Origin: Spirochaetia bacterium
Lineage (GTDB): Bacteria > Spirochaetota > Spirochaetia > CADAEX01
Reading direction: 5' to 3'
DNA: 59,322 nt
Assembly: GCA_963662265.2 (NCBI GenBank)
Contig: CAXXHA010000009.1
Coordinates: 1 to 59,322 of the forward strand
The notes below the pieces were generated by a model. That model was not told where the DNA came from and ran no database searches. It saw only the letters and a list, made by a program, of their open reading frames with translations. The stretch's first letter is position 1, and each line of letters begins with the position of its first letter. The translations under genes were made by a program, and so were the position numbers. Shown here piece after piece: positions 11,323-48,016 of this stretch.

Positions 11323-12263
11323 ATGGAACAGATATTAAACATAATTCCTATCTATTATACTAATAATGAAATTAATGGATTATTAAAAAAAAGTAAAGAC
11401 AAAACAGCTGATTTTTCTCTTCATTTTACCCAGAATGAGGATTTTTTTTTAAATACCTGGCAGACATTCAACATACCCCATATTCCCATACATCACGATA
11501 TCAATAAAAAAAACCTGATTCAAACTATATAACATTTCTGAAGTCTGTACTTGAGACAGTAATCCCTCTCACAGCCCCGCTGCTGGAAGATACTGAATAC
11601 TTTTTTGACCCTGCTGAACTTTTAAGGCCCTGTTTCTATAAAATCTATAATTACAAAAATAATGACTATATTTATATTGTGAGGCTGGATTTCAGCTTCA
11701 AACCGAATTACTGCGATATAATTGAAAAAGGGAACAATGATATAAACCATTTCTTCTCAACAAAGTCGGTATTTCTGGATGTGGATATACATCCTGTCGA
11801 TAAAATCGTTAAAAAGGCAGACAGGACTGAAATACATATAAAACAGTCAATTTCACAGACATGGATAGGAGAAACAGGAAGGGGATATTTTATTCAGGGT
11901 ATCTGGATAGATACAGAGCTTACCAAGTTTTTCACAAAGATTTTCACAAGTGAATCTGTCAGTACATATCCCTATTACCCTTTCTCATGTAAATACAGGA
12001 CTGTTTCCCATTTTCCTGTCAATTTCAATTCAGAAGGGAGAAAAAAACATCTCCACCTGCTTGACTCAGCATACAATTTTATTTATCCATACATGAGTGA
12101 AATAGAATCTGTACTTAAAAACAATGAATTCTCACCGGAACTGCCACTTTTCAGAGAGATTAAATCTAAAACAGATCCGGATTTCAGCAGTTTTTTTTCA
12201 AAATACAGCATCAGAAGATATCTGAACGAAAAAGGGATGAAAGAATATGAGCTTGAATATTGA
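11323..12263 (+). CDS. Hypothetical protein, one frameshift as assembled
   Basis: ORF 11323..11532 joins the frame of ORF 11679..12263 if the A-run at ~11505-11512 is corrected. The stop overlaps the murD start. Confidence 0.65.
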
Positions 12264-13642
12264 AAAACTTGAAGTTTCCGACCTTAAGGGACTGAAAATA
12301 ACAGTAATGGGACTTGGCCTTAACGGAGGGGGGCTTGCATCTGCTCTCTTTTTCGCCTCAAAAGGATCCTCAGTTACAGTAACCGACCTCAGGGAAGGGG
12401 AAATACTTGCCCCTTCCATTGAAAAGCTGAAACAATACAATATCAGATATGTTCTCGGAAAACATGATATCGAAGATTTCAGGAATGCAGATATTGTCAT
12501 AAAAAATCCTGCAGTGAGAAAATCATCACCCTATCTTGAAGCTGCGGATATCATTGAAACAGATATTTCCATATTCTTACGTCTTTGCAGAAAAAACAGG
12601 ATAATTGCTGTAACAGGAAGCAAGGGGAAATCAACCACAGTATCTGCGCTTTATCATGCTCTTAAAACAGCAGACAGCAGGGCAAAACTGGGGGGAAACA
12701 TAACAACATCCCCTTTAACTTTCATAGATGAAACAGAAGAAAATGATCCTGTAATACTTGAGCTTTCATCATGGCAGCTTGCTGACCTTAAAGACAAAAA
12801 CCTCCTCCATCCTGAAGTCTCTGTAATTACAAATATACTGCCGGATCATCAGAACAGCTATGACTGCATGGATGACTATGTTGAAGATAAAAAGCTTATT
12901 TACAGAGGACAGAACGGAAAACAGAAAACTCTCTGCCCTTATGATGATGCATACGGTGAGTTTTTTTATAATGAAACACCGGCTGAAGCTGCATACTTCT
13001 CAAAAAACCCCCTCCCTGACGGAATAAACGGGGGCATATCTTGACAGTGACGGATCAGGTTATTACAGAGACAGAAGCGGTACAGTTAAAATACTTGACA
13101 GCAGCATTGAAATAAAGGGAGAGCATAACAGGCTGAACCTTCTTACTGCGGCTGCTGCACTATACTTCTTCGGCATAGAACCTGAAAAAACAATGCCTGC
13201 CCTGTCCTTATTCAGGGGAATTCCTGACAGAATGGAGCTGGTGGCAGAGAAAAGAGGGATAAGCTTTTACAACGATACTACAGCAACTATTCCCGAGGCA
13301 GTAATTGCTGCTGTTACAAGTTTTAAAAACGGGGTAAGGCTTATTGCCGGGGGAACAGATAAGGAACTTGACTTTAATATTTTCACAGAACTGAAAAACA
13401 AAACTGAAATGATATATCTCCTCAAGGGGAGCGGAACTGATAAAATAATTCCTGTACTGGATGAAAACAGTATAATTTTCAAAGGTCCCTACAGTTCTCT
13501 TCAGGAAAGCTTCATAGATGCAGTTTCAGATGCTCATCCCGGTGACAAAATAATAATGTCCCCCGGATGTGCATCATTCGGAATGTTTAAAAATGAATTT
13601 GAGAGAGGTGAAACATTCAGGAAGCTTGTCAGGGAGATTTAA
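12247..13642 (+). CDS. murD: UDP-N-acetylmuramoyl-L-alanine--D-glutamate ligase, one frameshift as assembled
   Basis: Motifs MGLGLNGGG, AVTGSKGKSTT, GGNI, LELSSWQL, FYNDTTAT, LIAGGTDK and SPGCASFGMFKNEFERG. There is an extra G in the GGGGG run at 13031-13035. Confidence 0.93.
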
Positions 13643-13645
13643 GCT

Positions 13646-14170
13646 TCAGATAAGTGCAGATTCCTCAGCCCTTTTAATGAGTTCATATATGGAATTGTCA
13701 GATCCCTGATATGAACTTATCCCCATTTTTATGCTGAATTTTATCCTGTTTTCTTCATAATCAACAGTAAAAGCATTCAGAAACCCCTTTACCCGGTTAA
13801 AGGCTCTTTCCCCGTTATTAAGCCCTGTATCCTCCATCATGACAGCAAAATTATCGCCGCTGATCCTGCCTGTGACATCAGTACCTCTTGTCAGGCTGTC
13901 GATTTTCCGGGCAACTGTTTTCAGCAGAAAATCACCCGCATCAAAGCCGTATTCCCTGTTGATGGCATCCATATTGACAATATCAAGAACCAGAATACTC
14001 AGTTCCTTTCCATATCTGGAAGTCCTCGAAAAAGCCTCATGTGCTTTTTCATAGAAATTTGTCCTGTTATATACACCTGTCAGCTGATCCCTTTTCCGCA
14101 GAGTCTTAAGTTCCTGCTCAAGTTTTTCAACTTTTTCAAGAAGTTCCTCGTAACTGTATTCTTTTTCCAT
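13646..14170 (-). CDS. Small GGDEF-domain protein with a degenerate active site
   Basis: N-terminal coiled coil, DQLTGVYNR, YGFDAGDFLL, I-site RGTD and A-site SGDNF. Confidence 0.85.
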   Translation of the reverse strand: MEKEYSYEELLEKVEKLEQELKTLRKRDQLTGVYNRTNFYEKAHEAFSRTSRYGKELSILVLDIVNMDAINREYGFDAGDFLLKTVARKIDSLTRGTDVTGRISGDNFAVMMEDTGLNNGERAFNRVKGFLNAFTVDYEENRIKFSIKMGISSYQGSDNSIYELIKRAEESALI

Positions 14171-27160: not shown

Positions 27161-27925
27161 TCAAGTCTTTATTCTGCCAAGAATTCGAAGCAGGCCGTCA
27201 AGAATTGTCACAGGGTTCGGGGGACAGCCGGGAATATACAGATCGACAGGAATAACTGAATCAACACCGCAGAGAGTCGCATCATCATCTGAAAAAAGTC
27301 CCCCCGATATTGCGCAGCTTCCGACAGCAATTACTATTTTGGGTTCCGGGACTGCTTCGTAAGCCTTCAGAAGAGCATCTTTCATGTTTTCTGTTACAGG
27401 TCCTGTAACAAGAAGGCCGTCTGCATGCCGTGGTGATGCTGTAAATTTAATGCCGAATCTGCCAAGGTCCCACCCTACTGTTGTAAGCACATTTGTGTCA
27501 GCTTCACATGCATTACAGCCTCCTGCACTGACCTGCCGGAGGGAGAGAGATCTTTTGAAAATCCTTAGCATTTCCCTCTTCAGAGTTCCTGTTTTCTCAA
27601 GGATTGTTTTATCAGTAAGAAGAAGAGAAGATCTTTCAGACACAGCCATGCTGAAATCCTTTGAAAATGATATGCAGTTATAAGCGCATGCATCAGAGCA
27701 TCTCCTGCAGAAGATACATTTTCCGAGATCAAGTACCGGCTTCCCCCCTTTTTTTGAAAGAGCATCCACAGGGCATATATCAATACAGATCTTACATTCA
27801 TCCGGGCAGCTTTCAGCTTTTAAAACAGGTATCCCGAGGTATCTTTCCGGCATTTCAGGAGACACTGCAGGGAATTTCATTGTTCTGTATTTCTGATGTA
27901 TTCTGGACTTTAGGATTTTAAACAT
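27161..27925 (-). CDS. ehrS: Ehr/hydrogenase-4-like small subunit (NuoB/HycG-like) fused to an N-terminal 2x[4Fe-4S] NuoI/HycF-like domain
   Basis: CPDECKICIDICP and CIFCRRCSDAC clusters, then GGCNACE, SPRHAD, GSCAISGG and PGCPP. Confidence 0.88.
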   Translation of the reverse strand: MFKILKSRIHQKYRTMKFPAVSPEMPERYLGIPVLKAESCPDECKICIDICPVDALSKKGGKPVLDLGKCIFCRRCSDACAYNCISFSKDFSMAVSERSSLLLTDKTILEKTGTLKREMLRIFKRSLSLRQVSAGGCNACEADTNVLTTVGWDLGRFGIKFTASPRHADGLLVTGPVTENMKDALLKAYEAVPEPKIVIAVGSCAISGGLFSDDDATLCGVDSVIPVDLYIPGCPPNPVTILDGLLRILGRIKT

Positions 27926-27934
27926 AAACTACCT

Positions 27935-29509
27935 CTATAAATCGAATCCGCAGTATGAAAGATTGAAACTCTTGTTACACACAGGGAAATCAGATATTTC
28001 CTCCCCTCTCAGGGCAAGGGCAAGACCGAACCAGTTGTGAAAAGAGGGATCAACAATCTTGTACTTAAGCAGCTTTCCGCTGCTGTCAGTTACAGCTGTA
28101 TGGCAGACTTCACCTCTCCACCCTTCAACAAGAGAAACAGATATTGAATCGGGAGAAAGATTTAAATCAGCTTCCTTTCTTATCTTTCCGGATGGGAGTT
28201 CCTTAAGCATTTTTTCGATGAATTTCACAGATTCAAGCACCTCAAGCCATCTTACATAGCCCCTGGCATAGACATCGCCTCTCTGGGAAGTAGAAACAGG
28301 AAGGTAAGAAAACCTGTAGGAACCGGAAGGATGGTCTTTCCGGATATCCCTTACACATCCGGAAGCCCTCGCAGAGGGGCCGACCATTCCGATAAGTTCA
28401 GCAGTTTCCCGGGAAAGTTTCCCTGTTTCATCAAACCGTGCAAGTACTGAAGGGTTGTCCCAGAGAAGAGAGACTGCGCTCAGAAAATCTTTCCTTCCTT
28501 CATCGAGTCTTTCAAGAAGCATATTTATTACTTTATCATCAATATCAAAACCGCATCCCCCCGGGACAACAGCACCGCGGCCGAACCTGTTACCGCATAT
28601 CAGGGCAGTCATGTTGAGGAAATCCCCCCTGATCCTTCCGCAGTAGGAAGAGGTGGGTAGAAAACCGATATCACCCGCAAGAGCGCCTATATCGCCGATA
28701 TGGTTTGCGCATCTTTCAAGCTCAAGAGCAACAGCTCTGACAGCCTCACCCCTTGCAGTGGTCCCGGATTCCGAGAGCACTTCCATATTCTGGCAGTATG
28801 CAGTCGAGTGGGCTATTGTTGAATCCCCGGAAGCAGCACCTATTCTGTATAGTGTATTTTTAAAAGGTCCACCTTCAAGGCTTTTCTCAATACCCCGGTG
28901 CTGATATCCAAGTGAAATCTCAAGGTGATATACTTTTTCCCCGTGGCACTGGAACCTGAAATGCCCGGGCTCGATAATCCCTGCATGTATAGGTCCTACG
29001 CCGACCTCATGAATCTCATCTCCTTCAATCCTGAAAAAATCCATATCCCCTGCTTTTAGACACTTATCTTCACTATCCCTGCTGCCTTTTTCGGAGGACA
29101 TCTCATTTCCCTCGAAGGAGGGACTGACGGATCCCTTTTCAGCCTTTTCATTGCATGAGGGAAACCTCACAGGTTTCAGCCAGGGATGGCCTTCAGGTTT
29201 AATTCCTGACTGTTCATATATTTCCCTTTCAAAGAGATGAAACTGCGGGGCTAAGGGGGTAAGTGATTCGAAGGAGTTTTCTGTAACAATCATGGAGAGA
29301 AGATTGAGAGTTCCTTTTGCATCATCGCATATGACAAGGTAAAGGACATCATCCCCCCTGCAGTTTTTCATTGCAAAAAATGAACTGACCCTGCATCTTG
29401 AATAAATCATACCGAGAGCAGCATTTCTGAACTCATCCTCACCAAGGAGAGGAATTGCATTAACAGGTATGATTTTATTATGTCTTATTACAGTGCTGCT
29501 GTTTTTCAT
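27935..29509 (-). CDS. ehrL: Ehr large subunit (HycE/HyfG/NuoCD-like) lacking the NiFe CxxC motifs
   Basis: FEREIYEQ..GHPW, GPIHAGIIEPGHFRF, GYQHRGIEK, ELER..NH and VEGWRGE. The L1 position reads ASGDSTIAH and the C-terminus reads SFNLSYCGFDL. Confidence 0.88.
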   Translation of the reverse strand: MKNSSTVIRHNKIIPVNAIPLLGEDEFRNAALGMIYSRCRVSSFFAMKNCRGDDVLYLVICDDAKGTLNLLSMIVTENSFESLTPLAPQFHLFEREIYEQSGIKPEGHPWLKPVRFPSCNEKAEKGSVSPSFEGNEMSSEKGSRDSEDKCLKAGDMDFFRIEGDEIHEVGVGPIHAGIIEPGHFRFQCHGEKVYHLEISLGYQHRGIEKSLEGGPFKNTLYRIGAASGDSTIAHSTAYCQNMEVLSESGTTARGEAVRAVALELERCANHIGDIGALAGDIGFLPTSSYCGRIRGDFLNMTALICGNRFGRGAVVPGGCGFDIDDKVINMLLERLDEGRKDFLSAVSLLWDNPSVLARFDETGKLSRETAELIGMVGPSARASGCVRDIRKDHPSGSYRFSYLPVSTSQRGDVYARGYVRWLEVLESVKFIEKMLKELPSGKIRKEADLNLSPDSISVSLVEGWRGEVCHTAVTDSSGKLLKYKIVDPSFHNWFGLALALRGEEISDFPVCNKSFNLSYCGFDL

Positions 29510-30981
29510 AGCCTGATTCCTTTTTCAATAATTTCTGCGGCACTGGAAAGAAAATCCTGATATCCCTGGGGAAGATAAAGACCTGTTACAAGCAGTACAG
29601 AAAGAGACAGCAGGATAATAATCATTTCAAGCTTCCCCTGTTTACCAGTATTTTTTACCCTGCATGCCTGCCGCGACAAAACCATATCAAGAATATTTTT
29701 CAATATGCTTATAAATACTGCAAGTAAGCAGAACAGGAAGAGGGAAAACAGGAGAAACCGTCCCTTTTCAAACATTTCCCTCAGGATCATGAATTCGCTG
29801 AAAAACAGGGAGAACGGTGCAACCCCTATCAGGATGAGCATTGAAACAAGAAATGAAAATCCCCTTACAGGCATATTCTTCAGCACAGCTGTGATTTTAT
29901 TCATATCCCTTGTGCCGTAACTGTTGATTATAGATCCTGAAGTGAAAAAAGCAATCATCTTGGACAGGGAATGGTTTACAGAATGAAAAAGGGCAGCAAA
30001 TATTCCAACCCCTCCGAGTCCGAGCCCTATTGCAATTATCCCCATATGTTCTATGCTGCAGTAGGCCAGGAGCCGTTTCACATCTTTCTGGACAGGTATG
30101 AAAACCGCTGAAATCAGAAGTGAAAGAAATCCGAGCAGCAGAAGTATGGAATGTGCATCCCGGCTTCTCCCCATTGAAGCATCAACAACAGGCAGATACC
30201 GCATAATCACAAAAAGTGCAGCATTGAGCATGACGCTTGAAAAAACTGCTGATACAGGGGTAGGAGCCTGGCTGTGTGCATCAGGCAGCCATGTATGCAT
30301 CGGGGCAAGCCCGGCCTTTGTACCGAATCCCGCTGCTATAAATATAAATGCAAAAAGCATGATTTCAGGATTGAGTTCAGAGGCATGACTGCTGAGAAAA
30401 GTGAATGTATAAACCGGTTCAGCAGCAGAAACATCTCTTAATGATGCTGCAATCAGAAGGGTTCCTATAAATGCAAGTCCGATACCGACAGAACACACAA
30501 GCAGGTATTTCCACATAGCTTCAAGCGAAAGAGATTCATTTTCAGATATAATCAGAAACGCCGAGATTACTGTTGTTGCCTCAACAGCAACCCATGTAAA
30601 ACCTATGTTGTTTGACAGTATCACCATAAGAAGCATGAGGTGGAATCCCTGCCACAGCATGGAAAACCGCCTGAAGTGAAAGGCTGTTGATATCCCTGAA
30701 AAATATCCTGACATATAAACAGCGGATGAGAAAAAAATAATATTTACAAGCAGAATATGGAAAACTGCCAGATGGTCAATTACAAAAAGGTTACCGAAAA
30801 ACATGAAAGGACCTGATTTGAAAAATTCCGCAATCGGGAAAACTGACAATATCAGGGCTGATAACGAAGTATACAGAATAACCTTTATCATATCCTTTTC
30901 TCTTTTCATCAGTAACTCGGATGAAATACCTGCTGCAAAAAATAGCGCTGTGAGAACAGCTGATGTCTCTACTGAAATCAT
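29506..30981 (-). CDS. hyfF: Proton-pumping antiporter-like membrane subunit (HyfF/NuoN-like)
   Basis: WVAVEATT, LEAMWKY, GFGTKAGLAPMHTWLPDAHSQAPTPVSA and KRLLAYCSIEHMG. Confidence 0.88.
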   Translation of the reverse strand: MISVETSAVLTALFFAAGISSELLMKREKDMIKVILYTSLSALILSVFPIAEFFKSGPFMFFGNLFVIDHLAVFHILLVNIIFFSSAVYMSGYFSGISTAFHFRRFSMLWQGFHLMLLMVILSNNIGFTWVAVEATTVISAFLIISENESLSLEAMWKYLLVCSVGIGLAFIGTLLIAASLRDVSAAEPVYTFTFLSSHASELNPEIMLFAFIFIAAGFGTKAGLAPMHTWLPDAHSQAPTPVSAVFSSVMLNAALFVIMRYLPVVDASMGRSRDAHSILLLLGFLSLLISAVFIPVQKDVKRLLAYCSIEHMGIIAIGLGLGGVGIFAALFHSVNHSLSKMIAFFTSGSIINSYGTRDMNKITAVLKNMPVRGFSFLVSMLILIGVAPFSLFFSEFMILREMFEKGRFLLFSLFLFCLLAVFISILKNILDMVLSRQACRVKNTGKQGKLEMIIILLSLSVLLVTGLYLPQGYQDFLSSAAEIIEKGIRL

Positions 30982-31628
30982 TTATATAGCCTCTCGAGTG
31001 AATCTGTGTTTACTGAATCAAAATGGATATGAATATAGTTTACTGCTGCCACCATGATTACAACCCCTGCAAGAAGATCAAGAAGAACACCTAATTCAAT
31101 AAATAAAGGCTGACCCGATGCAATTGAAATCCCGAGGATAAAACCAGCATTTTCAAAAACCAGATACCCTATTATTTGTGCAATGATGTTTCTTCTTCCC
31201 GCAATTATAAACATCCCGACAATGACAGAGGCAAATCCTGCGGCAGTATGGAAGGGGGAAATACTCAGGTAAAAAAGAGGCAGTTTCCTGACAAGGTAGA
31301 ATGATCCGTAGGTTATCAGCAGACCTGAAACAACAGAAACTGAGTAACCTATATACGGATTCAGTTCTTTTTTAACCTTGACATTTTCAGATACCTTCCT
31401 GAGATAATAAGGGATGACAAGTCCCTTGATAACTATACTGAGAAAGGAGAGAACAAGAATTTCAGCAATATTTCCGAATTCAAAGTGGATGAAAAAAGGA
31501 AGAATACTTATAACAGTCCCCTGAAAAGCAATCCCCCTGATCATCGCCCCTATCCTGCTTGTTCCCAGAAGATAGATATTACTCAATACTATTAAAAGAG
31601 ATAATAATAAAAATAAATTGTTTCCCAT
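30978..31628 (-). CDS. hyfE: HyfE-like membrane subunit
   Basis: About 7 TM segments; QIIGYLVFENA and IELGVLLDL. Confidence 0.85.
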   Translation of the reverse strand: MGNNLFLLLSLLIVLSNIYLLGTSRIGAMIRGIAFQGTVISILPFFIHFEFGNIAEILVLSFLSIVIKGLVIPYYLRKVSENVKVKKELNPYIGYSVSVVSGLLITYGSFYLVRKLPLFYLSISPFHTAAGFASVIVGMFIIAGRRNIIAQIIGYLVFENAGFILGISIASGQPLFIELGVLLDLLAGVVIMVAAVNYIHIHFDSVNTDSLERLYK

Positions 31629-31632
31629 AATG

Positions 31633-32556
31633 CTAACCCAGAACCTTACTGAAAGATAGAAAAAAACCGAGAAAAGCTGCTGTCCCTGCGCTGAAAATCA
31701 GCTTAGGAACCTTTAACAGGGACGCCCTTGCAAGAACTGACTCAACCACACCTGCCGATGCAGCAACAAGAAATATAAAAAAAATCAGAATAAAGGGTTC
31801 AGCTATCGGAGTGACAGGAAGCAGAGTCATAACTGCCCTTGCAATAATAAGTGAAAAGACCCACATCTTTACTGCTGATGCATATTCATAGAGGGCAAGA
31901 TCAGGCCCGCTGTTGTCAAGTATCATCACCTCATGGATCATTGTCAGTTCAAGGTGGGTCTCAGGATCATCAAACGGGATTCTTGCATTTTCAGCAAGCA
32001 TCACAATAAAAAGGGGAATTACTGCAAGAATCATAATAACAGGATTACCTGTATAAGCCTTAACCAGGGCATCTGCGAAAACTGTTGTGTCCTGAATCCT
32101 CAGTATTGTGATTACAGATATGAATGCGGCAGGTTCGCTTAAGGAAGAGAAAAAAGCCTCCCTGGATGCGCCCATCCCTTCGAAAGATGATCCTGTATCA
32201 AGAGCGGAAATAATCATGAAAAACCTGCCGAAGGCAAGAAGGTAAAAAAGCAGTATGAAGTCCCCTGTAAAGGAGACTGCTTTTAAAGTTGATGCAACAG
32301 GTATAAAAACAGCTGATATGACAGTCACTGTAAAAATAATTACAGGTGAAATAAAAAAAACAGATGATGTTACGCTGCTTATGACAAAACCTTTTCTGAA
32401 AAGTTTTGCAAGATCATAATAAAGCTGTAAAAGAGGAGCCCCTTTCCTCCCCGCAAATGCTGCCTTTGTCTTTTTTATAATTCCTGAAAGAAGGGGGGAA
32501 ATTACAAGGGCAGAAAGTATAGAGATAAAAATATTTAACATAGCACAAACTTCCAT
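31633..32556 (-). CDS. hyfC: NuoH/HycD/HyfC-like membrane subunit
   Basis: GRKGAPLLQLYYDLAKL, LDTGSSFEGMGASRE and AENARIPFDDPETHLELTMIHE. Confidence 0.9.
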   Translation of the reverse strand: MEVCAMLNIFISILSALVISPLLSGIIKKTKAAFAGRKGAPLLQLYYDLAKLFRKGFVISSVTSSVFFISPVIIFTVTVISAVFIPVASTLKAVSFTGDFILLFYLLAFGRFFMIISALDTGSSFEGMGASREAFFSSLSEPAAFISVITILRIQDTTVFADALVKAYTGNPVIMILAVIPLFIVMLAENARIPFDDPETHLELTMIHEVMILDNSGPDLALYEYASAVKMWVFSLIIARAVMTLLPVTPIAEPFILIFFIFLVAASAGVVESVLARASLLKVPKLIFSAGTAAFLGFFLSFSKVLG

Positions 32557-34517
32557 ATTATCAGAACAACAACTGTCAGGGCGGCATAAAGAACATATAC
32601 TCCCGCCTTACCACACTGAAACCATCTTAAAAGAGAAAGAATCCTGTCAGCAGCTTTCACCGCCCTCACATATATTCCCGACAGAAACCAGTCGTCAACT
32701 CCTGAACTGAAAGACCAGTTTTTTTCAGGAAACAATTCCTCTGTGAAATTCTTTTCCCTGGAAAGAGCTGTAATCCCTTTAAACTTGTCAACAGCAGCAT
32801 CTGCATATGATGAAGATGTATACTGCATTTTACTTGAAGGGAACAGGTACCCGCACCCCCAGGTTTCTCTGATATTTTTAAATCTTTTCCTGTAAACCCT
32901 TCTTTTGAGTGCCGAAATAACAAGAATAAAAACCAGGGATACTGAAAGAACCAGGCTGACTGTTACCAGGTTATCCTCAAGCATGCTGAAATAAGGGGCT
33001 GTAATATTTCCGGTAAATACTGAAACCGGCTTTTCCAGGAAAGGGAGCAATGCAAATGAAGCAAGCCCGGTTAAAAGTGTGAAAAAGGCAAGTACCAGCA
33101 TGCTTATTCTCATTACCAGGGGTGCTTTCTCAACCGGTGAAAGATCTGTCTTTCGCGGCAGCCCCTGGAAAACAACACCAAAGACTTTGGAAAAACAGAG
33201 GGACGAAAGCCCCCCCACCGCAGCAAGAGAAATCACTGTTACAGAGGAAACCATAGGAAGAAATGAGTCGCTTCCCTTCACTGCGCCTGTAACCGATGAT
33301 ATGTAGATAAATATTTCGCTTATAAAACCGCTGAAAAAAGGGAGCCCTGAAATTGCTATTGAACCTGAGAGAAACAGATAACCTGTCCACGGCATTTTTT
33401 TAAAAAGCCCACCGAGCCTGTCAATTTCTCCGGTACCTGTCTGCCTGATGACAGCACCAGCACAGAGAAACAAAAGCCCCTTGTAAAGAGCATGGTTGAA
33501 TATATGGAGAAAAGCTCCGGCAAATCCGAATATTGAAACAATTTCATTATTATATATCTTACCTGTTATCCCCATGCCGAGGCCGAGCAGAATTATTCCA
33601 ATATTCTCCACACTGGAAAATGCAAGCAGCCTTTTAATATCATGCTGGCCCGAAGCAAACAGTATACCGAGTATCCCTGAAAAAGAGCCGAGAATTATAA
33701 GAGTTACCCCCCACCAGAGCTGAAGAGGAGCAAGGAAAAGGATAATTCTAATTATCCCGTAAATCCCCATTTTTATCATAATCCCTGACATCAGGGCTGA
33801 AACATGGCTAGGAGCTGCAGGATGAGCAAGGGGAAGCCATATATGAAACGGGATAAATCCTGCTTTAAGGCCGAATCCGATCAGGGCTGTGATAAAAATA
33901 AGGTTCATTTTATCAACAGGGAAACTGAATAGCCTGAATGCATTAAAATCAAAACTCCCCGAACATGATGAGAGGAGGAAAAAAGCGGTAAACAGAAAAG
34001 CTGTCCCGACATGTGCTGTTGCAAAATATATCCACCCCGCCCTTCTCACTTTTTTATCTTCATAATCTGTTATAACCAGAAGAAAAGAGGAGAAAGACAT
34101 TATTTCCCATGAGATAATGAAAAGCACGGCATTCCGGGAAAGAAGAACCATTACCATACCTGAAGCAAGCAGGGAATAACTGAACCAGTGCATTCTTCCA
34201 GCCCCGCTGCCTTTAAAATATCTTATTCCGTATGCAGAACATACGGATGTCAGAAACAAAAGAGGTATTAAAAAGAAAAGAGAAATATAATCAATACCGA
34301 TTTTAAATTCAGCAAAAGGAAGCTGCCAGTCTAATGAATATATTTGATCGGCGAAAGTATTGTATCCTGTCACGATTATCAGAAGCAGAGCCAGGCTTGA
34401 GAGGATACAGACGGCAGGGAATATATTCCTGCCTGCAGATTTTTTCCCGCCGGTTTTTATACTGATAATACCTGTAAAAATAATAAGTACAGTATAGAAA
34501 AAAATTATTAAAAGCAT
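32535..34517 (-). CDS. hyfB: Proton-pumping antiporter-like membrane subunit (HyfB/HycC/NuoL-like)
   Basis: WEIMSFSSFLL, KAGFIPFHIWLPLAHPAAPSHVSALMSG, KRLLAFSSVENIG and TWGCGY...MQYT. Confidence 0.9.
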   Translation of the reverse strand: MLLIIFFYTVLIIFTGIISIKTGGKKSAGRNIFPAVCILSSLALLLIIVTGYNTFADQIYSLDWQLPFAEFKIGIDYISLFFLIPLLFLTSVCSAYGIRYFKGSGAGRMHWFSYSLLASGMVMVLLSRNAVLFIISWEIMSFSSFLLVITDYEDKKVRRAGWIYFATAHVGTAFLFTAFFLLSSCSGSFDFNAFRLFSFPVDKMNLIFITALIGFGLKAGFIPFHIWLPLAHPAAPSHVSALMSGIMIKMGIYGIIRIILFLAPLQLWWGVTLIILGSFSGILGILFASGQHDIKRLLAFSSVENIGIILLGLGMGITGKIYNNEIVSIFGFAGAFLHIFNHALYKGLLFLCAGAVIRQTGTGEIDRLGGLFKKMPWTGYLFLSGSIAISGLPFFSGFISEIFIYISSVTGAVKGSDSFLPMVSSVTVISLAAVGGLSSLCFSKVFGVVFQGLPRKTDLSPVEKAPLVMRISMLVLAFFTLLTGLASFALLPFLEKPVSVFTGNITAPYFSMLEDNLVTVSLVLSVSLVFILVISALKRRVYRKRFKNIRETWGCGYLFPSSKMQYTSSSYADAAVDKFKGITALSREKNFTEELFPEKNWSFSSGVDDWFLSGIYVRAVKAADRILSLLRWFQCGKAGVYVLYAALTVVVLIIWKFVLC

Positions 34518-35203
34518 TACATGTTGCTCCCCGAATCATTCAAATCAACAGCTTCAAGAAAAGCATCAAGTATTTCCTCTCTTGATTTATCACTGTTTAT
34601 TTTTTCCCTCAGTTGCCTGTTGTTGAGTACATAGCTTAACCTTGAAAGAATATATAAATGCTCCCTTATATTGGACGTAATAATTACAAAAAGAATATCT
34701 ACAGCCCTGCCGTCCGGTGCTTCAAGATCAACAGCCTTTTCGAGAAAACAGAGTCCTATAATCGGATTCTGAAGATCAAAAACTATCGGGTCCCTGACAT
34801 GTGGGATAGCAATCCCGTTTCCTATGGCAGTGGTTCCAAGCCTTTCCCTTGCCTTGAGAGCATCTGATAAATAATCCCGGTCTATGTAATCGGGAAGATT
34901 TATTACATTTACAACAGATTCAAGAACTTCACATGGAGTCCTTCCTGATACGCGGTAATAGATCCCCCCCCTTTTCAGGCTTTCATAAAGGGTAAACGGT
35001 GTTATTTCCGATTTATTTCTGTCATCAAATATTTCATCGGGAACATTCAGTTTTTTCCGGTTTGTCCATTCAAGAATTTCAGCCTGGTTGAAACGGTAGC
35101 TCTGGCCTACTCTGTAAACTGGTATCTCTTTCTTTGCAATCCATCTGTAAACTGTCTTTTCCGACACAGCAAGAAGCTGCGCAACCTTTTTAACATCAAG
35201 CAC
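34517..35203 (-). CDS. Excisionase/MerR-like HTH (HTH_17) fused to a PTS EIIA (Ntr/Fru-type) domain; putative operon regulator
   Basis: N-terminal VKKVAQLLAVSEKTVYRWIAKKEIPVYRVGQSYRF and C-terminal RERLGTTAIGNGIAIPH with the phospho-His retained. GTG start; the stop overlaps the hyfB ATG (TAATG). Confidence 0.9.
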   Translation of the reverse strand: MLDVKKVAQLLAVSEKTVYRWIAKKEIPVYRVGQSYRFNQAEILEWTNRKKLNVPDEIFDDRNKSEITPFTLYESLKRGGIYYRVSGRTPCEVLESVVNVINLPDYIDRDYLSDALKARERLGTTAIGNGIAIPHVRDPIVFDLQNPIIGLCFLEKAVDLEAPDGRAVDILFVIITSNIREHLYILSRLSYVLNNRQLREKINSDKSREEILDAFLEAVDLNDSGSNM

Positions 35204-35235
35204 TGTATTTATCCAGTTGTTTTTTCACATCTGTA

Positions 35236-35285
35236 AACCTAACAGCAAGGGCAAATACTGTCAACAAATGTCCAAAGATGTCCAA
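35236..35285 (-). promoter_or_regulatory. Promoter of the Ehr operon with three phased direct repeats
   Basis: Minus strand TTGACA (35264-35259), 17 nt, TAGGTT. Plus-strand TGTC(A/C)A occurs at 35259, 35269 and 35279, an exact 10-bp period. Confidence 0.65.
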
Positions 35286-40155: not shown

Positions 40156-41550
40156 ATGACTATTTTAATTATTTATCTGCTGTTCCTTCTGACTATAGGT
40201 ATCATGGATTTCAAAAAGGTTAAGAGTTTTAATGACTATGTACTTGCCGGAAGAAAACAGAGTCTGATAATTGTAACAATCAGCCTCATGGCGTCAATGA
40301 TTGGCAGCGGTTCAACAATGGGACTTGCAGACAAGACATTTGCAAAAGGATTTCCCGCAATCTGGTTTCTTGCAGTGGGTGGAATAGGTCTTATCCTTCA
40401 GGCAATTTTCCTTTCAGAAAAGGTAAGAGCATCGGAAGCTGTAACACTACCCGATCTTGCTGAAAAAACAATGGGAAATAATACCAGAATACTTGTTGCA
40501 TTTATCATTACTGTTACATGGATAGGAATAATTGCAGCACAGTTCATCGCAGCAGGGAAAATAATAACCGCACTCACAGGTCTTGATGCATTCTGGGTTC
40601 TGACTCTGGCAGCAGCAGTTATTGTTATTTATTCATACCTGGGAGGACAGGCTTCAATCCTGAAAACAGACTTCCTCCAGTTCACAATACTGTTTATAGC
40701 TGTAGTTTTTACAGTTATGTTTCTCTATTCTGTAAAACCTCCTGCACCCGGTGCAGTTAAAGTTGAACTTTTAAATCAGTATTTTACCGGAAGAGACCTG
40801 TTCTTTTATCTTACAGTTGTTATGGGATCATACTTTATATGTCCAATGATGTTCAGCCGTCTTTTAACTGCAAAAACACCTGTAACTGCAAGGAAATCAA
40901 GTTTTATTGCAGGTTTCGGAGTTCTCATTTTTGCAGTAATGATTGTACTGATCGGACTGTGGGGTAAATCAAGTATTGAGGATCCAGGAAGAGCAGGTGT
41001 AATATCATGGATATTTGTAAATGAACTTCCCAAAGCAGGGGGTATAATCCTTATACTGGGTATTCTTTCCGCAATTATCTCTACTACAGATACATGCCTT
41101 TTAATGACTTCAAGCATTATAGAACACGATATAATATACCCTCTAACAGGTAAGGGAAGCGAAGATGAGAAAAAATCAGGTGTGAGTCTTACAAGAATGC
41201 TTGTCCTTGTTCTCGGACTGCTCGGCTACCTTACTGCATTATGGGGCAACTGGGACATTATAGGTCTCCTCCTTGAAGCTTTCGAATTCTATACTGCCGG
41301 AATTGTTCCTGCAATGTTTATAGCACTCCTTGTAATAAACAGAAAAACGCTTGATCCTAAGTGGTCTTTCTATGCTGTTCTTGCCGGGGGGATTTTCGGC
41401 ATCATGCCTAAAATAACACCTCTTATAAATATTCTGAGCAGCGCAATACCGGGTTTCTGGGTTAAGTCTCTTCCTGTAACAGGAATGGCCCTGTCTCTTA
41501 TACTGGCATTGATTGCATCAGCAAAAGGAAAAGAAAAAACAGCTGTATAG
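40156..41550 (+). CDS. Sodium:solute symporter (SSS) family transporter
   Basis: DYVLAGR, ASMIGSGSTMG, YSYLGG...TDFLQ and SAIISTTDT; about 13 TM segments. Confidence 0.92.
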   Translation: MTILIIYLLFLLTIGIMDFKKVKSFNDYVLAGRKQSLIIVTISLMASMIGSGSTMGLADKTFAKGFPAIWFLAVGGIGLILQAIFLSEKVRASEAVTLPDLAEKTMGNNTRILVAFIITVTWIGIIAAQFIAAGKIITALTGLDAFWVLTLAAAVIVIYSYLGGQASILKTDFLQFTILFIAVVFTVMFLYSVKPPAPGAVKVELLNQYFTGRDLFFYLTVVMGSYFICPMMFSRLLTAKTPVTARKSSFIAGFGVLIFAVMIVLIGLWGKSSIEDPGRAGVISWIFVNELPKAGGIILILGILSAIISTTDTCLLMTSSIIEHDIIYPLTGKGSEDEKKSGVSLTRMLVLVLGLLGYLTALWGNWDIIGLLLEAFEFYTAGIVPAMFIALLVINRKTLDPKWSFYAVLAGGIFGIMPKITPLINILSSAIPGFWVKSLPVTGMALSLILALIASAKGKEKTAV

Positions 41551-44945: not shown

Positions 44946-46115
44946 TCATGTAAAATATTTCCGGTAAATCCCCCTGAACTGATCATAGCTGAGGTTTAAA
45001 AGGGAAGCTGCATGCTTCTGATTGTTTCCTGTATCTGAAAGTGCTGATGATATGAGTTCTTTTTTGACAATATCTGTTATTTTATGAAAATCGGCGCCCC
45101 TTTCAGAATTACCAGCCCCTGCAATCAGAGCCTGTATAAGCTTTTTCATGATACTGCCTTCAAAACTGCCTGAAACACAGTCAGCAGAAACCTGGTAAAG
45201 AGAATTATTATCTGAACCGGAATCCAGTTGTGTTTTATCAGCTGCAGGTATAATTTCTCTTTTTCCATCAGTTCCTGTACTGCCTGACTGTTCTGAAGAC
45301 ACCTCTTCATGACTGTCTGATTTTTCAACAGTTATTTCAGTATAGGGATTTACAAACGGGTCGAGAACAACATCCTCGATAACATTGCCTGATGCTCTGT
45401 ATACTGCCCTTTCTACAGTATTTTTCAGCTCCCTTATATTACCGGGCCATCCGTATCCTGTAAGTTTTTCAGCAGCACTGTCAGAAAAGCTTATTCTCCC
45501 CTTCCTGCCAAGCTCCTTGCCCATTTTCTGCGCGAAATGTTCGGCAAGCACTGTTATATCACCCTTCCGGGCCCGGAGAGGCGGTACAAACAGAACTTCA
45601 AAGGAAAGCCTGTCAAGAAGATCCTGCTTGAACTTTCCTTCCCGGCACATAGCGGGAAGATCCTGATTTGCTGCCCCGATAATTCTTACATCAATCTCTT
45701 TTGTTTCAGAACTCCCTACCCTTTCAAAAGTCCCGTACTCGACAACCCTCAGAATCTTTTCCTGTACTTCAAACGGGATAAGACCAATTTCATCGAGAAA
45801 AAGGGTTCCACCGTCAGCCTCTTCAAAACGTCCCTTTCTTTCCCTGTCCGCACCTGTATAGGCACCTTTTACATGGCCGAAAAGTTCAGACTCGATAAGT
45901 GAAGGAGGAAGCGCTGCACAGTTGAGCTTGACAAAGCTGTTGTTCCATCTTGATGACAGATAATGGAGGCGGGAAGCTGCAAATTCCTTTCCCGATCCCC
46001 TTTCTCCGATCAGAAGCACCGACCTGTCAACAGAAGCGGCTCGCCTGAGATTTTCCTGAAAACTGTAGAATTCTTCAGATTCACCAATCTGATTATTATT
46101 AAACATTTCTGCCAT
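44946..46115 (-). CDS. pspF: PspF-type sigma54 enhancer-binding activator
   Basis: No N-terminal regulatory domain; GERGSGKE, ESELFGHVKGAYTGA, GTLFLDE, DLLDRL, WPGNIRELKN and HTH NQKHAASLLNLSYDQFRG. Divergent from pspA. Confidence 0.9.
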   Translation of the reverse strand: MAEMFNNNQIGESEEFYSFQENLRRAASVDRSVLLIGERGSGKEFAASRLHYLSSRWNNSFVKLNCAALPPSLIESELFGHVKGAYTGADRERKGRFEEADGGTLFLDEIGLIPFEVQEKILRVVEYGTFERVGSSETKEIDVRIIGAANQDLPAMCREGKFKQDLLDRLSFEVLFVPPLRARKGDITVLAEHFAQKMGKELGRKGRISFSDSAAEKLTGYGWPGNIRELKNTVERAVYRASGNVIEDVVLDPFVNPYTEITVEKSDSHEEVSSEQSGSTGTDGKREIIPAADKTQLDSGSDNNSLYQVSADCVSGSFEGSIMKKLIQALIAGAGNSERGADFHKITDIVKKELISSALSDTGNNQKHAASLLNLSYDQFRGIYRKYFT

Positions 46116-46181
46116 GGTTTTTTCTACCTCTTACAGGTATTATACACCTTTCTGCGCTTAATTTTAAAGGTTTTAATCACC
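46116..46181. promoter_or_regulatory. Three putative PspF upstream activating sequences
   Basis: GGT-N7-ACC dyads at 46116-46128, 46136-46148 and 46169-46181, about 110-170 nt upstream of the sigma54 promoter. Confidence 0.65.
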
Positions 46182-46288
46182 ATGGAATTAAAGAAAAATC
46201 ATTATCTTATGAGATTTTTATCAACAATGACTTAAAAAATGCTGTTTCACACAGATTCAAGGAAAGAATAGTAATAATTTACAGAAAT

Positions 46289-46304
46289 TGGCACACTTAA
46301 TGCA
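46289..46304 (+). promoter_or_regulatory. sigma54 (-24/-12) promoter of pspA
   Basis: TGGCAC-ACTTA-ATGCA matches the TGGCAC-N5-TTGCW spacing. Confidence 0.85.
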
Positions 46305-46359
46305 TAGATATTATAAAGTCTTTTAAAGGCTTTACACTATTTGTTTAAAGGAGAATCTT

Positions 46360-47019
46360 ATGGGAGTTTTTACAAGATTCAAAGATATAATATCATCTAA
46401 TATCAATGCACTGCTTGATGAAGCTGAAGACCCGAAGAAAATGCTCAGAATGATGATACAGGAGATGGAGGATACTCTTATTGAACTGAAATCATCCTGT
46501 TCCATGAAGATGGCATCAAAAGAGGAGCTTGAGGATGATATTGAAATTGCACAAAACAAGGTTGAAAGATGGGCGGAAAGAGCAAAAAAGGCACTCTCTG
46601 CAGGGGAAGAGGAACTTGCAAGGGAAGCTCTTCTTGAAAAGAGAAAAATAAGCAAAAACCTCGAATATCTCAAGAATGATCTCGAAGAGTATGATAAAAT
46701 CATAGATGAATCAAAAAATGATATAGCAAAACTTCAGAATAAACTTGAAGAAGCTATAATGAAGCATGATATACTTATCGAAAGAAGCAATCATGCAAGG
46801 GACAGAATAAAAGCCCAGAGAGCGGTCAGGAATTCCGAAAGTTCAAAAGCAGGTGAAAGATTCAGAAGATTTGAATCTGCTGTAAGAGATCTTGAAAATG
46901 AAGCATCATTTGACGGGAATGAGGAAAACTGGACTCTTGATCAGAAGTTTGAAAAGATGGAAACTGAGCAGGAGATTCAGTCTGAACTGGACCAGCTCAA
47001 GAAAGAGATTAATGAATAA
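46360..47019 (+). CDS. pspA: Phage shock protein A (PspA/IM30)
   Basis: MGVFTRFKDIISSNINALLDEAEDPKKM, GEEELAREAL and coiled-coil sequence. Confidence 0.95.
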   Translation: MGVFTRFKDIISSNINALLDEAEDPKKMLRMMIQEMEDTLIELKSSCSMKMASKEELEDDIEIAQNKVERWAERAKKALSAGEEELAREALLEKRKISKNLEYLKNDLEEYDKIIDESKNDIAKLQNKLEEAIMKHDILIERSNHARDRIKAQRAVRNSESSKAGERFRRFESAVRDLENEASFDGNEENWTLDQKFEKMETEQEIQSELDQLKKEINE

Positions 47020-47411
47020 TGGGGACCTGTATGCATCATAACAGACATTTTTATTCCAACGGTAAAAGGCTTTACCGTTCAAGAGAAAGGATGCTTTTCG
47101 GAGTATGCAAGGGAATAGCTGAATGGAAAGACCTCCCTGTAGGCTGGGTAAGGTTCTTTACAGTGCTGGCATTTATGAGCACAGGATTCTTTCCTGTAGG
47201 GCTGATATACCTGATTGCAGCGATAGTAATACCGATTGAACCGCCGGGGTACTACAGAAACAGCAGCCATGATTCTTCATTCAGTCACAATGATTATGAC
47301 GACAGATTTGATTCTTCAGACAGGTATGATGAGGGGAAATATAAAAGGCGTTATGACAACGAAGATGACTGGGACAGACGTTTCTCGAGAAAAAAAAGGG
47401 GGGATCAGTAA
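47019..47411 (+). CDS. pspC: PspC-domain membrane protein
   Basis: KRLYRSRERMLFGVCKGIAE, a hydrophobic segment ending YLIAAIVIP, and an acidic tail; TAATG overlap with pspA. Confidence 0.9.
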   Translation: MGTCMHHNRHFYSNGKRLYRSRERMLFGVCKGIAEWKDLPVGWVRFFTVLAFMSTGFFPVGLIYLIAAIVIPIEPPGYYRNSSHDSSFSHNDYDDRFDSSDRYDEGKYKRRYDNEDDWDRRFSRKKRGDQ

Positions 47412-47416
47412 TATAA

Positions 47417-48016
47417 ATGTCAAAGAAAGAGGTCAGGGTAAAAACTGAAAAAGATAAAAACACAGACAAGTCAGTTTTTTCTATTGATTATTTCAGCTCT
47501 CCTGATAAGGAAAATACAAGGTTTAATCTGTATTCTTATCTGATGGAAAGCAGAAATACAGTTCTTCACATAAATACAAACATGTCAGCTTCAGTAAGCC
47601 CTGAGAAAGACAGGGACAATGTAATAGCTTTGAGAGATATGTGCAGTGAAGATAATTTTGACTTCTATATGGCTCCTGCAGCCCGGGAAAACAGCGGCGG
47701 TTTCCTGGGCAAATTTTTAAACAAGGAGGGAAACAAGCATACCGCCTATAATATCCTGATAAATATTCCTGAAAAAACCTTTAACAGGGATATATTTGAC
47801 AGATATATGTGCAGCTATTTTATCAGGCTTGGAATCGGTTTTGAAACTGACAAATATGACAGTATCAAGTCTGATTTCCAGACAGGGCTTCTTGTCCCGG
47901 ATGAATTCTACAGGGTATTTGAATATGATCTTTTTGATGCCTTTGAATTCAATCACATAAAGCTTATTTCAGATACAGTTTCAAAAACAGAGCTGGAAAG
48001 GATCTTTTCAAAATAA
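47417..48016 (+). CDS. Hypothetical soluble protein, likely co-transcribed with pspAC
   Basis: 199-aa ORF starting 5 nt after the pspC stop; no motif recognised. Confidence 0.7.
   Translation: MSKKEVRVKTEKDKNTDKSVFSIDYFSSPDKENTRFNLYSYLMESRNTVLHINTNMSASVSPEKDRDNVIALRDMCSEDNFDFYMAPAARENSGGFLGKFLNKEGNKHTAYNILINIPEKTFNRDIFDRYMCSYFIRLGIGFETDKYDSIKSDFQTGLLVPDEFYRVFEYDLFDAFEFNHIKLISDTVSKTELERIFSK

Follow-up and report, generated by a model that had tools for sequence, protein, structure and literature searches.

The window analysed here is a 59,322-nucleotide stretch of DNA from a Spirochaetia bacterium, and it carries a predicted operon of seven minus-strand ORFs at positions 27161–35203 in which neighbours overlap or are separated by at most 9 nt (junctions in transcription order, from the regulator to the small subunit: -1, -22, +4, -4, -4 and +9 nt). 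The first gene (34517–35203, GTG start, 228 aa) encodes a regulator with the Pfam domains HTH_17 and PTS_EIIA_2, and it shares a 1-nt overlap with the gene for a HyfB/NuoL-like antiporter-type membrane subunit of the EhrA type (32535–34517, 660 aa). Then come genes for a HyfC/NuoH-like membrane subunit (31633–32556, 307 aa, Pfam NADHdh, 4e-29), a HyfE-like membrane subunit (30978–31628, 216 aa), a HyfF/NuoN-like antiporter-type membrane subunit (29506–30981, 491 aa), the large subunit EhrL, which is a NuoC-NuoD fusion (27935–29509, 524 aa, Pfam Complex1_30kDa and Complex1_49kDa, the latter at 2.2e-38), and the small subunit EhrS of NuoI plus NuoB type (27161–27925, 254 aa, Pfam Fer4 dicluster and Oxidored_q6). 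Both antiporter-type subunits match Pfam Proton_antipo_M, and NCBIfam identifies them as hydrogenase 4 subunit B (1.3e-162) and subunit F (2.1e-109); the HyfE-like protein has no Pfam match and hits the NCBIfam hydrogenase 4 membrane subunit model at 2.4e-18, under the curated cut-off. Seven overlapping or nearly abutting genes were what the original prediction had described, and the ORF coordinates and domain assignments bear this out; its endpoint for the unit, 35285, lies past the regulator ORF, whose outer bound is 35203, and falls at the first of three TGGACAT-like boxes.

A group 4 [NiFe] hydrogenase carries the motifs RxCGxCxxxH and DPCxxCxx(H/R) in its large subunit, and both are absent from EhrL. 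In an alignment of EhrL to HycE, HyfG and NuoCD of E. coli, the HycE segment RVCGICGFAH falls on AASGDSTIAH, and DPCYSCTDR with its 32-residue extension falls on NLSYCGFDL followed by a stop, so that none of the four Ni-ligand cysteines of HycE and HyfG is kept and EhrL terminates at the point where HycE is cleaved. The loss of both motifs and the lack of a cleavable C-terminal extension had been proposed earlier, with the presence of four Ni-ligand cysteines in such a HycE/NuoD alignment named as grounds for abandoning the idea; the alignment has 0/4. The protein nevertheless belongs to the group 4/complex I fold: its top sequence match is HycE of the E. coli formate hydrogenlyase (7Z0S_E, phmmer 2e-41), and the top Foldseek match is again HycE, with a TM score of 0.74. 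In the phylogenetic tree, cysteine-less large subunits form one clade (support 100/99), within which EhrL and its Geobacter and Geomonas homologues make up a 100/100 subclade, separate from HycE, HyfG and NuoCD; these Geobacteraceae proteins are other than the G. sulfurreducens GSU0739-45 proteins, two Geobacter subclades exist, and none of the Geobacter homologues of EhrL bears a source name with "Ehr". The loss of all four Ni ligands, the fold, the Hyf-like membrane subunits and the clustering with Geobacteraceae homologues uphold the classification as Ehr, and the system in the window is a member of this known family rather than a new kind.

EhrL is among the most conserved parts of the complex, with about 55% identity across phyla and matches in at least 594 genomes, which argues for a working protein. 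It has six near-invariant cysteines (Cys188, 290, 305, 469, 511 and 520) that HycE, HyfG and NuoCD all lack; four of the six are clade-specific. An AlphaFold2 model built from 67 sequences has a mean pLDDT of 77.9, with values below 50 for residues 112–201 and 502–524, the stretches that contain Cys188 and the C-terminal motif.

The small subunit fuses a HycF/NuoI-like domain for two [4Fe-4S] clusters to a HycG/NuoB-like [4Fe-4S] domain, and all 12 Fe-S ligand cysteines (4+8, aligned with HycG/HyfI and HycF/HyfH) are kept. Among the 73 related loci with a small-subunit match, 66 align with the whole of this fused EhrS in a single tblastn piece. Channel residues are retained as well: the HyfB-like subunit has E138, K218, K249 and E401 at the columns of NuoM E144/K234/K265/E407, and the HyfF-like subunit has E134, K222, N253 and E396, the same pattern as E. 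coli HyfF. Subunit set and order thus resemble those of E. coli hydrogenase 4 and formate hydrogenlyase (Hyf, Hyc; 7Z0S), HycE being the nearest relative of EhrL and HycF plus HycG the equivalent of EhrS; unlike those systems, the window lacks the Ni ligands, the C-terminal extension, HyfA/HycB, a formate dehydrogenase and a maturation protease gene, and it joins the HycF- and HycG-type domains in one protein. With Ehr of G. sulfurreducens (GSU0739-45) it shares a group 4/NuoD-type large subunit without NiFe cysteines, a NuoB-type small subunit and HyfB/C/E/F-like membrane subunits, the antiporter-type ones lying in the same operon. EhrL is 51-53% identical to the Geobacteraceae homologues with which it clusters, whose loci have two HyfB-like genes whereas the window has one. 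A supercomplex of Ehr with formate dehydrogenase has been proposed for Margulisbacteria and Geobacter; here the formate dehydrogenase alpha subunit was not found in the 90.6%-complete assembly, and we set this arrangement aside.

In the regulator, HTH_17 occupies residues 1–50 (Pfam 7.8e-16) and a PtsN-like PTS_EIIA_2 domain residues 86–216 (6.9e-24), the nearest solved chains to the latter being PtsN 3URR and 4GQX (1.2e-16). All 20 homologues compared keep A132, P134, H135 and H182, and His135, within a GIAIPH motif, is the predicted phosphorylated histidine. The G-x-A-I-P-H histidine and the second conserved histidine are as in PtsN/EIIA-Ntr (3URR, 4GQX, 2A0J, 1A6J); the window protein differs in its N-terminal HTH_17 fusion and in heading an Ehr operon rather than lying in the rpoN cluster, whose members here are rpoN, hpf, hprK and ptsH. 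The genome encodes three HPr-type and four EI-type proteins. That the first gene ties the operon to PTS phosphorylation had been proposed earlier, and the invariant GIAIPH histidine, the conserved boxes and the genomic HPr and EI genes favour this, with control by phosphorylation itself being the probable reading of these features.

The boxes, TGGACAT, TGGACAT and TTGACAG (35258–35284, minus strand), lie 55–81 nt upstream of the regulator start and are helically phased with a period of 10; judged from their sequence and placement they are likely an operator, and the third also serves as a -35-like hexamer. The exact double box occurs once in the window, and the 3.77 Mb assembly has no second pair of this kind. 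Of 33 regulator genes that head an operon, 15 are preceded by a phased TGGACA/TGTCCA pair, whereas shuffles gave a mean of 0.02 and none of 254 control windows had one; by the criterion used the pair is absent from the other 18 upstream regions. No convincing sigma-70 promoter was found at the boxes, the -10-like TAGGTT fitting 3/6 positions, and a sigma-54 reading (TGG...TTGA) was dropped because of a mismatch at the -12 element and because the boxes come as 10-bp direct repeats.

The pairing of this regulator with Ehr is widespread. Of 58 informative loci, from at least 10 labelled phyla, 42 have the regulator and 16 do not; among the best 25 regulator loci of 201 sampled Spirochaetota genomes, 24 have a HyfB-like gene next to the regulator. 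Six loci of Verrucomicrobiota type have the regulator gene inside the operon and lack the boxes. The pairing, for which the original prediction had called for a survey, is a trait of the family across phyla and not a peculiarity of spirochaetes. Our literature search found no paper on an HTH_17+PTS_EIIA_2 regulator paired with Ehr, and the accessible portions of the Ehr literature make no mention of a PTS-type regulator.

Together, these features make it probable that the operon encodes a clade-1 Ehr: a six-subunit, complex-I-like machine derived from group 4 [NiFe] hydrogenases that has lost the NiFe cofactor and works as a ferredoxin-driven ion pump under a dedicated, PTS-switched regulator. 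The sequence shows which genes are present, that the Ni ligands are gone while Fe-S ligands and channel residues remain, and that pairing and boxes are conserved; the donor, the acceptor, ion pumping, DNA binding and phosphorylation are our inferences for this operon. Reduced ferredoxin, for which the genome has a PFOR, would deliver electrons to two surface [4Fe-4S] clusters of EhrS, from which they would pass to the NuoB-type cluster and on to a rebuilt site where EhrL, EhrS and the NuoH-like subunit meet and where an acceptor would be reduced; this redox reaction would drive cation or proton translocation via the two antiporter-like subunits. The regulator would be a dedicated one-component system that binds the phased TGGACAT boxes of its own promoter through HTH_17; HPr~P or NPr~P would phosphorylate His135 and thereby switch the PtsN-like EIIA domain, so that Ehr synthesis would follow PEP/carbon-nitrogen status.

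An H2-metabolising enzyme with a non-canonical active site is the alternative that fares best, and we consider it unlikely. Its model is the "endo-hydrogenase" Hyq of Azorhizobium caulinodans, a precedent that was not taken into account earlier: the seven-gene hyqRBCEFGI operon, with its regulator first, is in print (PMC2650096). As reported in the available portions of PMC3357923, its deletion raises H2 evolution 15-fold at 20 uM O2, deletion in a hup mutant abolishes most microaerobic H2 evolution, and the authors describe HyqG as lacking both CxxC motifs; the mutants thus show in vivo phenotypes in both H2 uptake and H2 evolution, and H2 chemistry may survive the loss of the cysteines. The likeness extends to the gene order R-B-C-E-F-G-I without hyfA and hyfD, to a G protein of about 504 residues that is likewise a NuoC-NuoD fusion, and to the GDS and CNKSFN signatures common to EhrL and a Rhizobium pTA1_4 homologue. 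On the other hand, the Hyq evidence is genetic, a cell-free assay not being at hand according to the same portions of PMC3357923, and 0/4 Ni ligands remain in EhrL. Hyq proteins also form a sister subclade, separate from that of EhrL, at 33% identity, and share two of its six conserved cysteines. The small subunit of the Rhizobium homologue (177 aa) has Oxidored_q6 (NuoB) only, with no NuoI-like domain and therefore without the two extra clusters, and its R protein is a 104-aa XRE-type HTH protein without EIIA, unrelated to the window regulator; Hyq is moreover under NifA/sigma-54 control in a diazotroph host. The genome does have maturation genes, hypF, hypD, hypE, hypA and hypB, on another contig, yet they adjoin a Hox-type NiFe hydrogenase that accounts for them, and for that reason their presence is uninformative on the Ehr complex. 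By the same token, the original prediction was correct that the window's ORFs include no hyp genes, but this is no argument because the genome carries them. Its conclusion that the complex is not an H2 enzyme is likely, yet short of certain in view of the phenotypes of the cysteine-less Hyq.

It is somewhat less probable still that the complex is a minimal complex I-like ferredoxin:quinone oxidoreductase. NuoH-, NuoB- and NuoD-like subunits are the builders of the complex I quinone cavity, and the genome has two UbiA-type prenyltransferases and one ETF-QO-like gene. The columns of the quinone head-group ligands of NuoD, which we take to be His224 and Tyr273 in E. coli, are however occupied in EhrL by invariant Ile179 and Gly227, a departure from complex I, and the MenA score of 72 bits lies below the curated cut-off of 102.

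Comparably improbable is that the regulator acts mainly by contact with the antiporter-like subunit, in the manner of PtsN, and not as a transcription factor. E. coli PtsN regulates K+ transporters by binding, and several arrangements fit such a role: the regulator–HyfB-like pair stays intact at three loci (L014, L043 and L050) where it is inverted relative to the remaining operon, and at six loci where it is embedded between two HyfB-like genes. A regulator paralogue in the same genome overlaps and precedes a Na+/H+ exchanger gene, a pairing repeated at four other Spirochaetota loci; a metagenome scan with the paralogous regulator returned five loci, too few to count, among them L097, which again pairs the regulator with an exchanger, and L098, which is degraded. 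Against a main role in contact stand the conservation of HTH_17 from residue 1, a conserved and genome-unique candidate operator at the promoter, and two loci (L068 and L078) whose regulator gene lies ahead of those for the large and small subunits and has no HyfB-like neighbour. DNA binding and protein contact are compatible modes and do not exclude each other. Very improbable, finally, is a redox-independent ion transporter with its peripheral arm as a structural relic, a notion in line with the treatment of Geobacter Ehr as non-functional in the accessible part of a 2026 paper (PMC13194489) and at odds with the 12/12 Fe-S cysteines retained and with EhrL, with its six near-invariant cysteines, being so highly conserved.

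Going beyond the preferred reading of a ferredoxin-driven, PTS-regulated Ehr, we tentatively suggest, as a possibility more doubtful than that reading, that HTH_17-EIIA proteins are a class, so far undescribed, of one-component switches controlled by the PTS and dedicated to cation/proton-translocating machines (Ehr in many phyla, Na+/H+ exchangers in spirochaetes), and that the NiFe pocket of clade-1 EhrL has been rebuilt, with the six near-invariant cysteines, into a cysteine-based redox or metal site that would reduce an acceptor with ferredoxin electrons.

Ehr complexes are intermediate between group 4 hydrogenases and complex I, and one scan found them in at least 594 species; their function is called unknown in the available text of PMC10284858 and PMC6349859, and papers as late as 2023 and 2026 still describe it as unknown or non-functional, respectively. 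A dedicated regulator with a predicted PTS input and conserved boxes offers a guide to conditions and mutants in cultured carriers such as Geobacter and Geomonas, and the six conserved cysteines of EhrL are mutational targets for the catalytic site. With a regulator paralogue linked to a Na+/H+ exchanger, ion homeostasis suggests itself as the physiological setting.

An association between the regulator and Ehr genes is evident from the comparison of related loci; the pairing is real and extends across many phyla. The original prediction had proposed a survey of how often HTH_17+PTS_EIIA_2 genes precede ehr operons; of 80 related loci, 22 were too short upstream and were left out, and a regulator homologue is present in 42 of the 58 informative loci, a fraction slightly inflated since loci with a regulator match were scored as informative even if short. 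At most loci the regulator stands at the operon head; in six Verrucomicrobiota-type loci it has a HyfB-like gene on either side, in three Geobacteraceae-type loci it forms a divergent pair with HyfB, and in two Planctomycetota loci it lies immediately before the large and small subunit genes. Regulator-less loci occur in Riflebacteria, Elusimicrobiota, Holophagaceae/Geothrix and some others. When the search was reversed across 201 Spirochaetota genomes, a HyfB-like gene was next in 24 of the 25 best full-length regulator matches (E <= 2.8e-46). Ala132, Pro134 and His135 of the GIAIPH phosphorylation motif, together with His182, are kept in 20 regulator homologues, and the nearest solved chains are PtsN proteins. 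The source records of 2319 relatives name them only 'PTS sugar transporter subunit IIA' or 'nitrogen regulatory IIA', and our literature search returned no report of the regulator-Ehr pairing in searchable papers.

Two side observations concern the upstream regions. In three Holophagaceae/Geothrix loci (L051:28-2856, L065:623-3109, L071:73-2883) an ORF of 830-940 aa with no Pfam match stands in the regulator's position, immediately ahead of the first Ehr gene. In a Geobacteraceae MAG (L019:96-3000), the stretch upstream of the Ehr operon holds a HyfB-like gene and, after it, a gene with a weak match to the catalytic domain of CsoSCA (carboxysome carbonic anhydrase), a pair reminiscent of DAB-type CO2 hydration systems.

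In the window, the gene layout of the predicted seven-gene operon, regulator first, is borne out by ORFs, junctions and domain calls (Pfam and NCBIfam): seven minus-strand ORFs span 35203 to 27161, their junctions being -1, -22, +4, -4, -4 and +9 nt. They encode, in order, the regulator (34517-35203; 228 aa; HTH_17 plus PTS_EIIA_2), a HyfB-like protein with Proton_antipo_M (660 aa), a NuoH/HyfC-like protein (307 aa), a HyfE-like protein (216 aa; NCBIfam match alone, under cut-off), a HyfF-like protein with Proton_antipo_M (491 aa), the large subunit (27935-29509; 524 aa), which fuses Complex1_30kDa and Complex1_49kDa, and the small subunit (254 aa), which fuses Fer4-dicluster and Oxidored_q6. 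The neighbours, a methyltransferase and an ABC-F ATPase with a promoter-like site of its own, are unrelated, and no electron-input module was found across the whole window. Some 10 kb from the operon, a sigma-54 activator gene lies divergent to pspA-/pspC-like genes (44946-48016), forming a phage-shock-type membrane stress unit.

Upstream of the regulator start, TGGACAT, TGGACAT and TTGACAG recur with exact 10-nt spacing (35258-35284) and form a probable operator. We counted TGGACA/TGTCCA pairs 10-11 nt apart, allowing a single mismatch over both boxes, within the 160 nt that precede each regulator; there is a phased pair at 15 of 33 operon-heading regulators and at 0 of 6 embedded ones (shuffles, mean 0.02; control windows, 0/254); the whole assembly holds one such pair, at the regulator. 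The boxes read ATGTCCA at 13 loci, mostly between -32 and -63, and TGGACAT at two Spirochaetota loci, the window's own and L025 of Rectinemataceae, where their positions are -81/-71 and -79/-69 and they overlie a -35-like TTGACA. The -10-like hexamer in the window is weak (TAGGTT), and a promoter scan at these boxes called none; given this position and the weak hexamer, one could speculate that the candidate boxes serve activation in this spirochaete lineage. A one-mismatch double-box copy (TGAACATCATTGGACAT) at 40839-40855, within a gene for a sodium:solute symporter on the opposite strand, is probably due to chance, as 3 of 100 shuffles gave equally many matches.

The genome also encodes a regulator paralogue (contig C36:55739-58049, L093:5739-8049; 215 aa, 28% identical) with both domains; it overlaps a Na_H_Exchanger+CBS gene at that gene's start, and three phased GTTTGTTGC-like repeats lie upstream of it. 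In four more Spirochaetota loci (L127, L128, L130, L131) the order is HTH-EIIA, a second EIIA and an exchanger.

The complex is a further member of the known Ehr family, a name used in two papers for such complexes of unknown function, with spirochaetes among the carriers (PMC6349859, PMC10284858). Relatives of the large subunit number in the thousands (at least 8000 scored candidates at E <= 0.001; at least 594 places when each species was represented by one genome), with homologues of ~55% identity in Planctomycetota, Verrucomicrobiota, Myxococcota and Geobacteraceae; in own-class samples, 16 of 151 genomes, this one counted, carry a large subunit of Ehr type (>=46% identity). The assembly (3.77 Mb, 41 contigs, 90.6%-complete; the window is one entire contig, C9) is placed in Spirochaetota because the window holds a gene of the Borrelia_P83 family and because of named relatives. 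In the tree, every cysteine-less protein falls in one clade (100/99) separate from HycE, HyfG and NuoCD, and the window sequence lies in a 100/100 subclade (clade-1) with Geobacter and Geomonas sequences, its closest neighbour being a Fibrobacteres MAG and no spirochaete; the intermingling of phyla there suggests that the large subunit spread laterally. A 2026 paper terms the Geobacter Ehr complex non-functional (PMC13194489), a reading disfavoured by the strong conservation in the present data.

When the large subunit is aligned with the HycE, HyfG and NuoCD sequences annotated in the E. coli K-12 record, the earlier claim of altered nickel motifs and no C-terminal extension is confirmed: AASGDSTIAH aligns to HycE RVCGICGFAH and NLSYCGFDL to DPCYSCTDR, the four Ni-ligand columns hold Ser, Ser, Ser and Gly, and the protein ends exactly at the HycE cleavage point, so that no extension is left. 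Its top match is HycE of the solved formate hydrogenlyase (7Z0S_E; sequence, 2e-41; fold, TM 0.74). Invariant Ile179 and Gly227 occupy the columns of the two NuoD quinone ligands. Across 194 clade-1 large subunits, Cys188, Cys290 and Cys305 never vary and Cys469, Cys511 and Cys520 are present in 185-189; all six positions are non-cysteine in HycE, HyfG and NuoCD. Cys520 adjoins the fourth Ni-ligand column, and Cys469 precedes the conserved His of an RG..H motif.

In the small subunit, residues 1-110 align with HycF/HyfH at each of the eight cysteines for two [4Fe-4S] clusters, and three to four proximal-cluster cysteines (GGCNACE, C204, C234) align with HycG/HyfI/NuoB; of the 73 related loci where a small subunit was hit, 66 match the fused form full length in a single tblastn piece, and in the other 7 the match is split or cut. 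Glu138, Lys218, Lys249 and Glu401 of the HyfB-like subunit are retained at the E. coli NuoM columns Glu144, Lys234, Lys265 and Glu407, and the HyfF-like subunit has the residue pattern of E. coli HyfF at the corresponding columns. With Fe-S cysteines and channel residues kept and Ni and quinone ligands replaced, the electron wire and ion channels look intact, and the hydrogenase and complex I sites are both lost.

A similar system overlooked in the original prediction, Hyq of Azorhizobium caulinodans, is already in print. The hyqRBCEFGI operon comprises seven closely packed genes without hyfA and hyfD under NifA/sigma-54 control (PMC2650096); HyqG lacks both CxxC motifs and retains three other cysteines, and hyq deletion mutants show altered in vivo H2 uptake and evolution, a cell-free assay being reported not to exist (PMC3357923, 2012). 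A Hyq homologue on a Rhizobium ruizarguesonis plasmid has the gene order of the window's operon, and the GDS and CNKSFN signatures recur in its large subunit; however, that subunit is 33% identical, belongs to a sister subclade and has just Cys290 and Cys511 of the six clade-1 cysteines, the small subunit is NuoB-only rather than fused, and the R gene encodes a 104-aa XRE-type HTH protein with no relation to the window's regulator. Since Hyq differs from the window's complex but has H2 phenotypes, the original prediction that the latter is not an H2 enzyme stands as the likelier reading, though unproven.

The assembly contains no complex-I/Hyf-type locus other than that of the window. Candidate phosphoryl donors are three HPr-type and four EI-type genes, with an rpoN-hpf-hprK-ptsH cluster. 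An 808 aa Enzyme I homologue carries an N-terminal GGDEF-like domain (contig C10:365545-367971, L141:1046-3472), and a stand-alone PtsN-like EIIA (149 aa) follows universal stress protein and V-type ATPase subunit D genes (contig C18:52540-55115, L081). A Hox-type soluble NiFe hydrogenase (HoxF-, U-, Y-, H-like) adjoins hypF, D, E, A and B (contig C3:22000-41000, L092); there, hypF in two ORFs and a 168-aa hypE stub point to frameshifts or decaying genes in the assembly. Short ORFs in the window at 6005-6406, 12247-13044 and 13646-14170, with only partial matches to UDPGP, Mur ligase and GGDEF families, may be more frameshifts or pseudogenes.

In Geobacter, every Ehr subunit increases on formate (PMC7894505). 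In the 90.6%-complete assembly no formate dehydrogenase alpha subunit was found, and a MenA search gave scores under cut-off; the genome carries PFOR, two Rnf-type clusters and a V-type ATPase subunit gene. All that we say on the function of the complex and its regulator is inferred; from PFOR, the Rnf-type clusters and the formate dehydrogenase result, the most plausible electron donor of the complex is thus ferredoxin.
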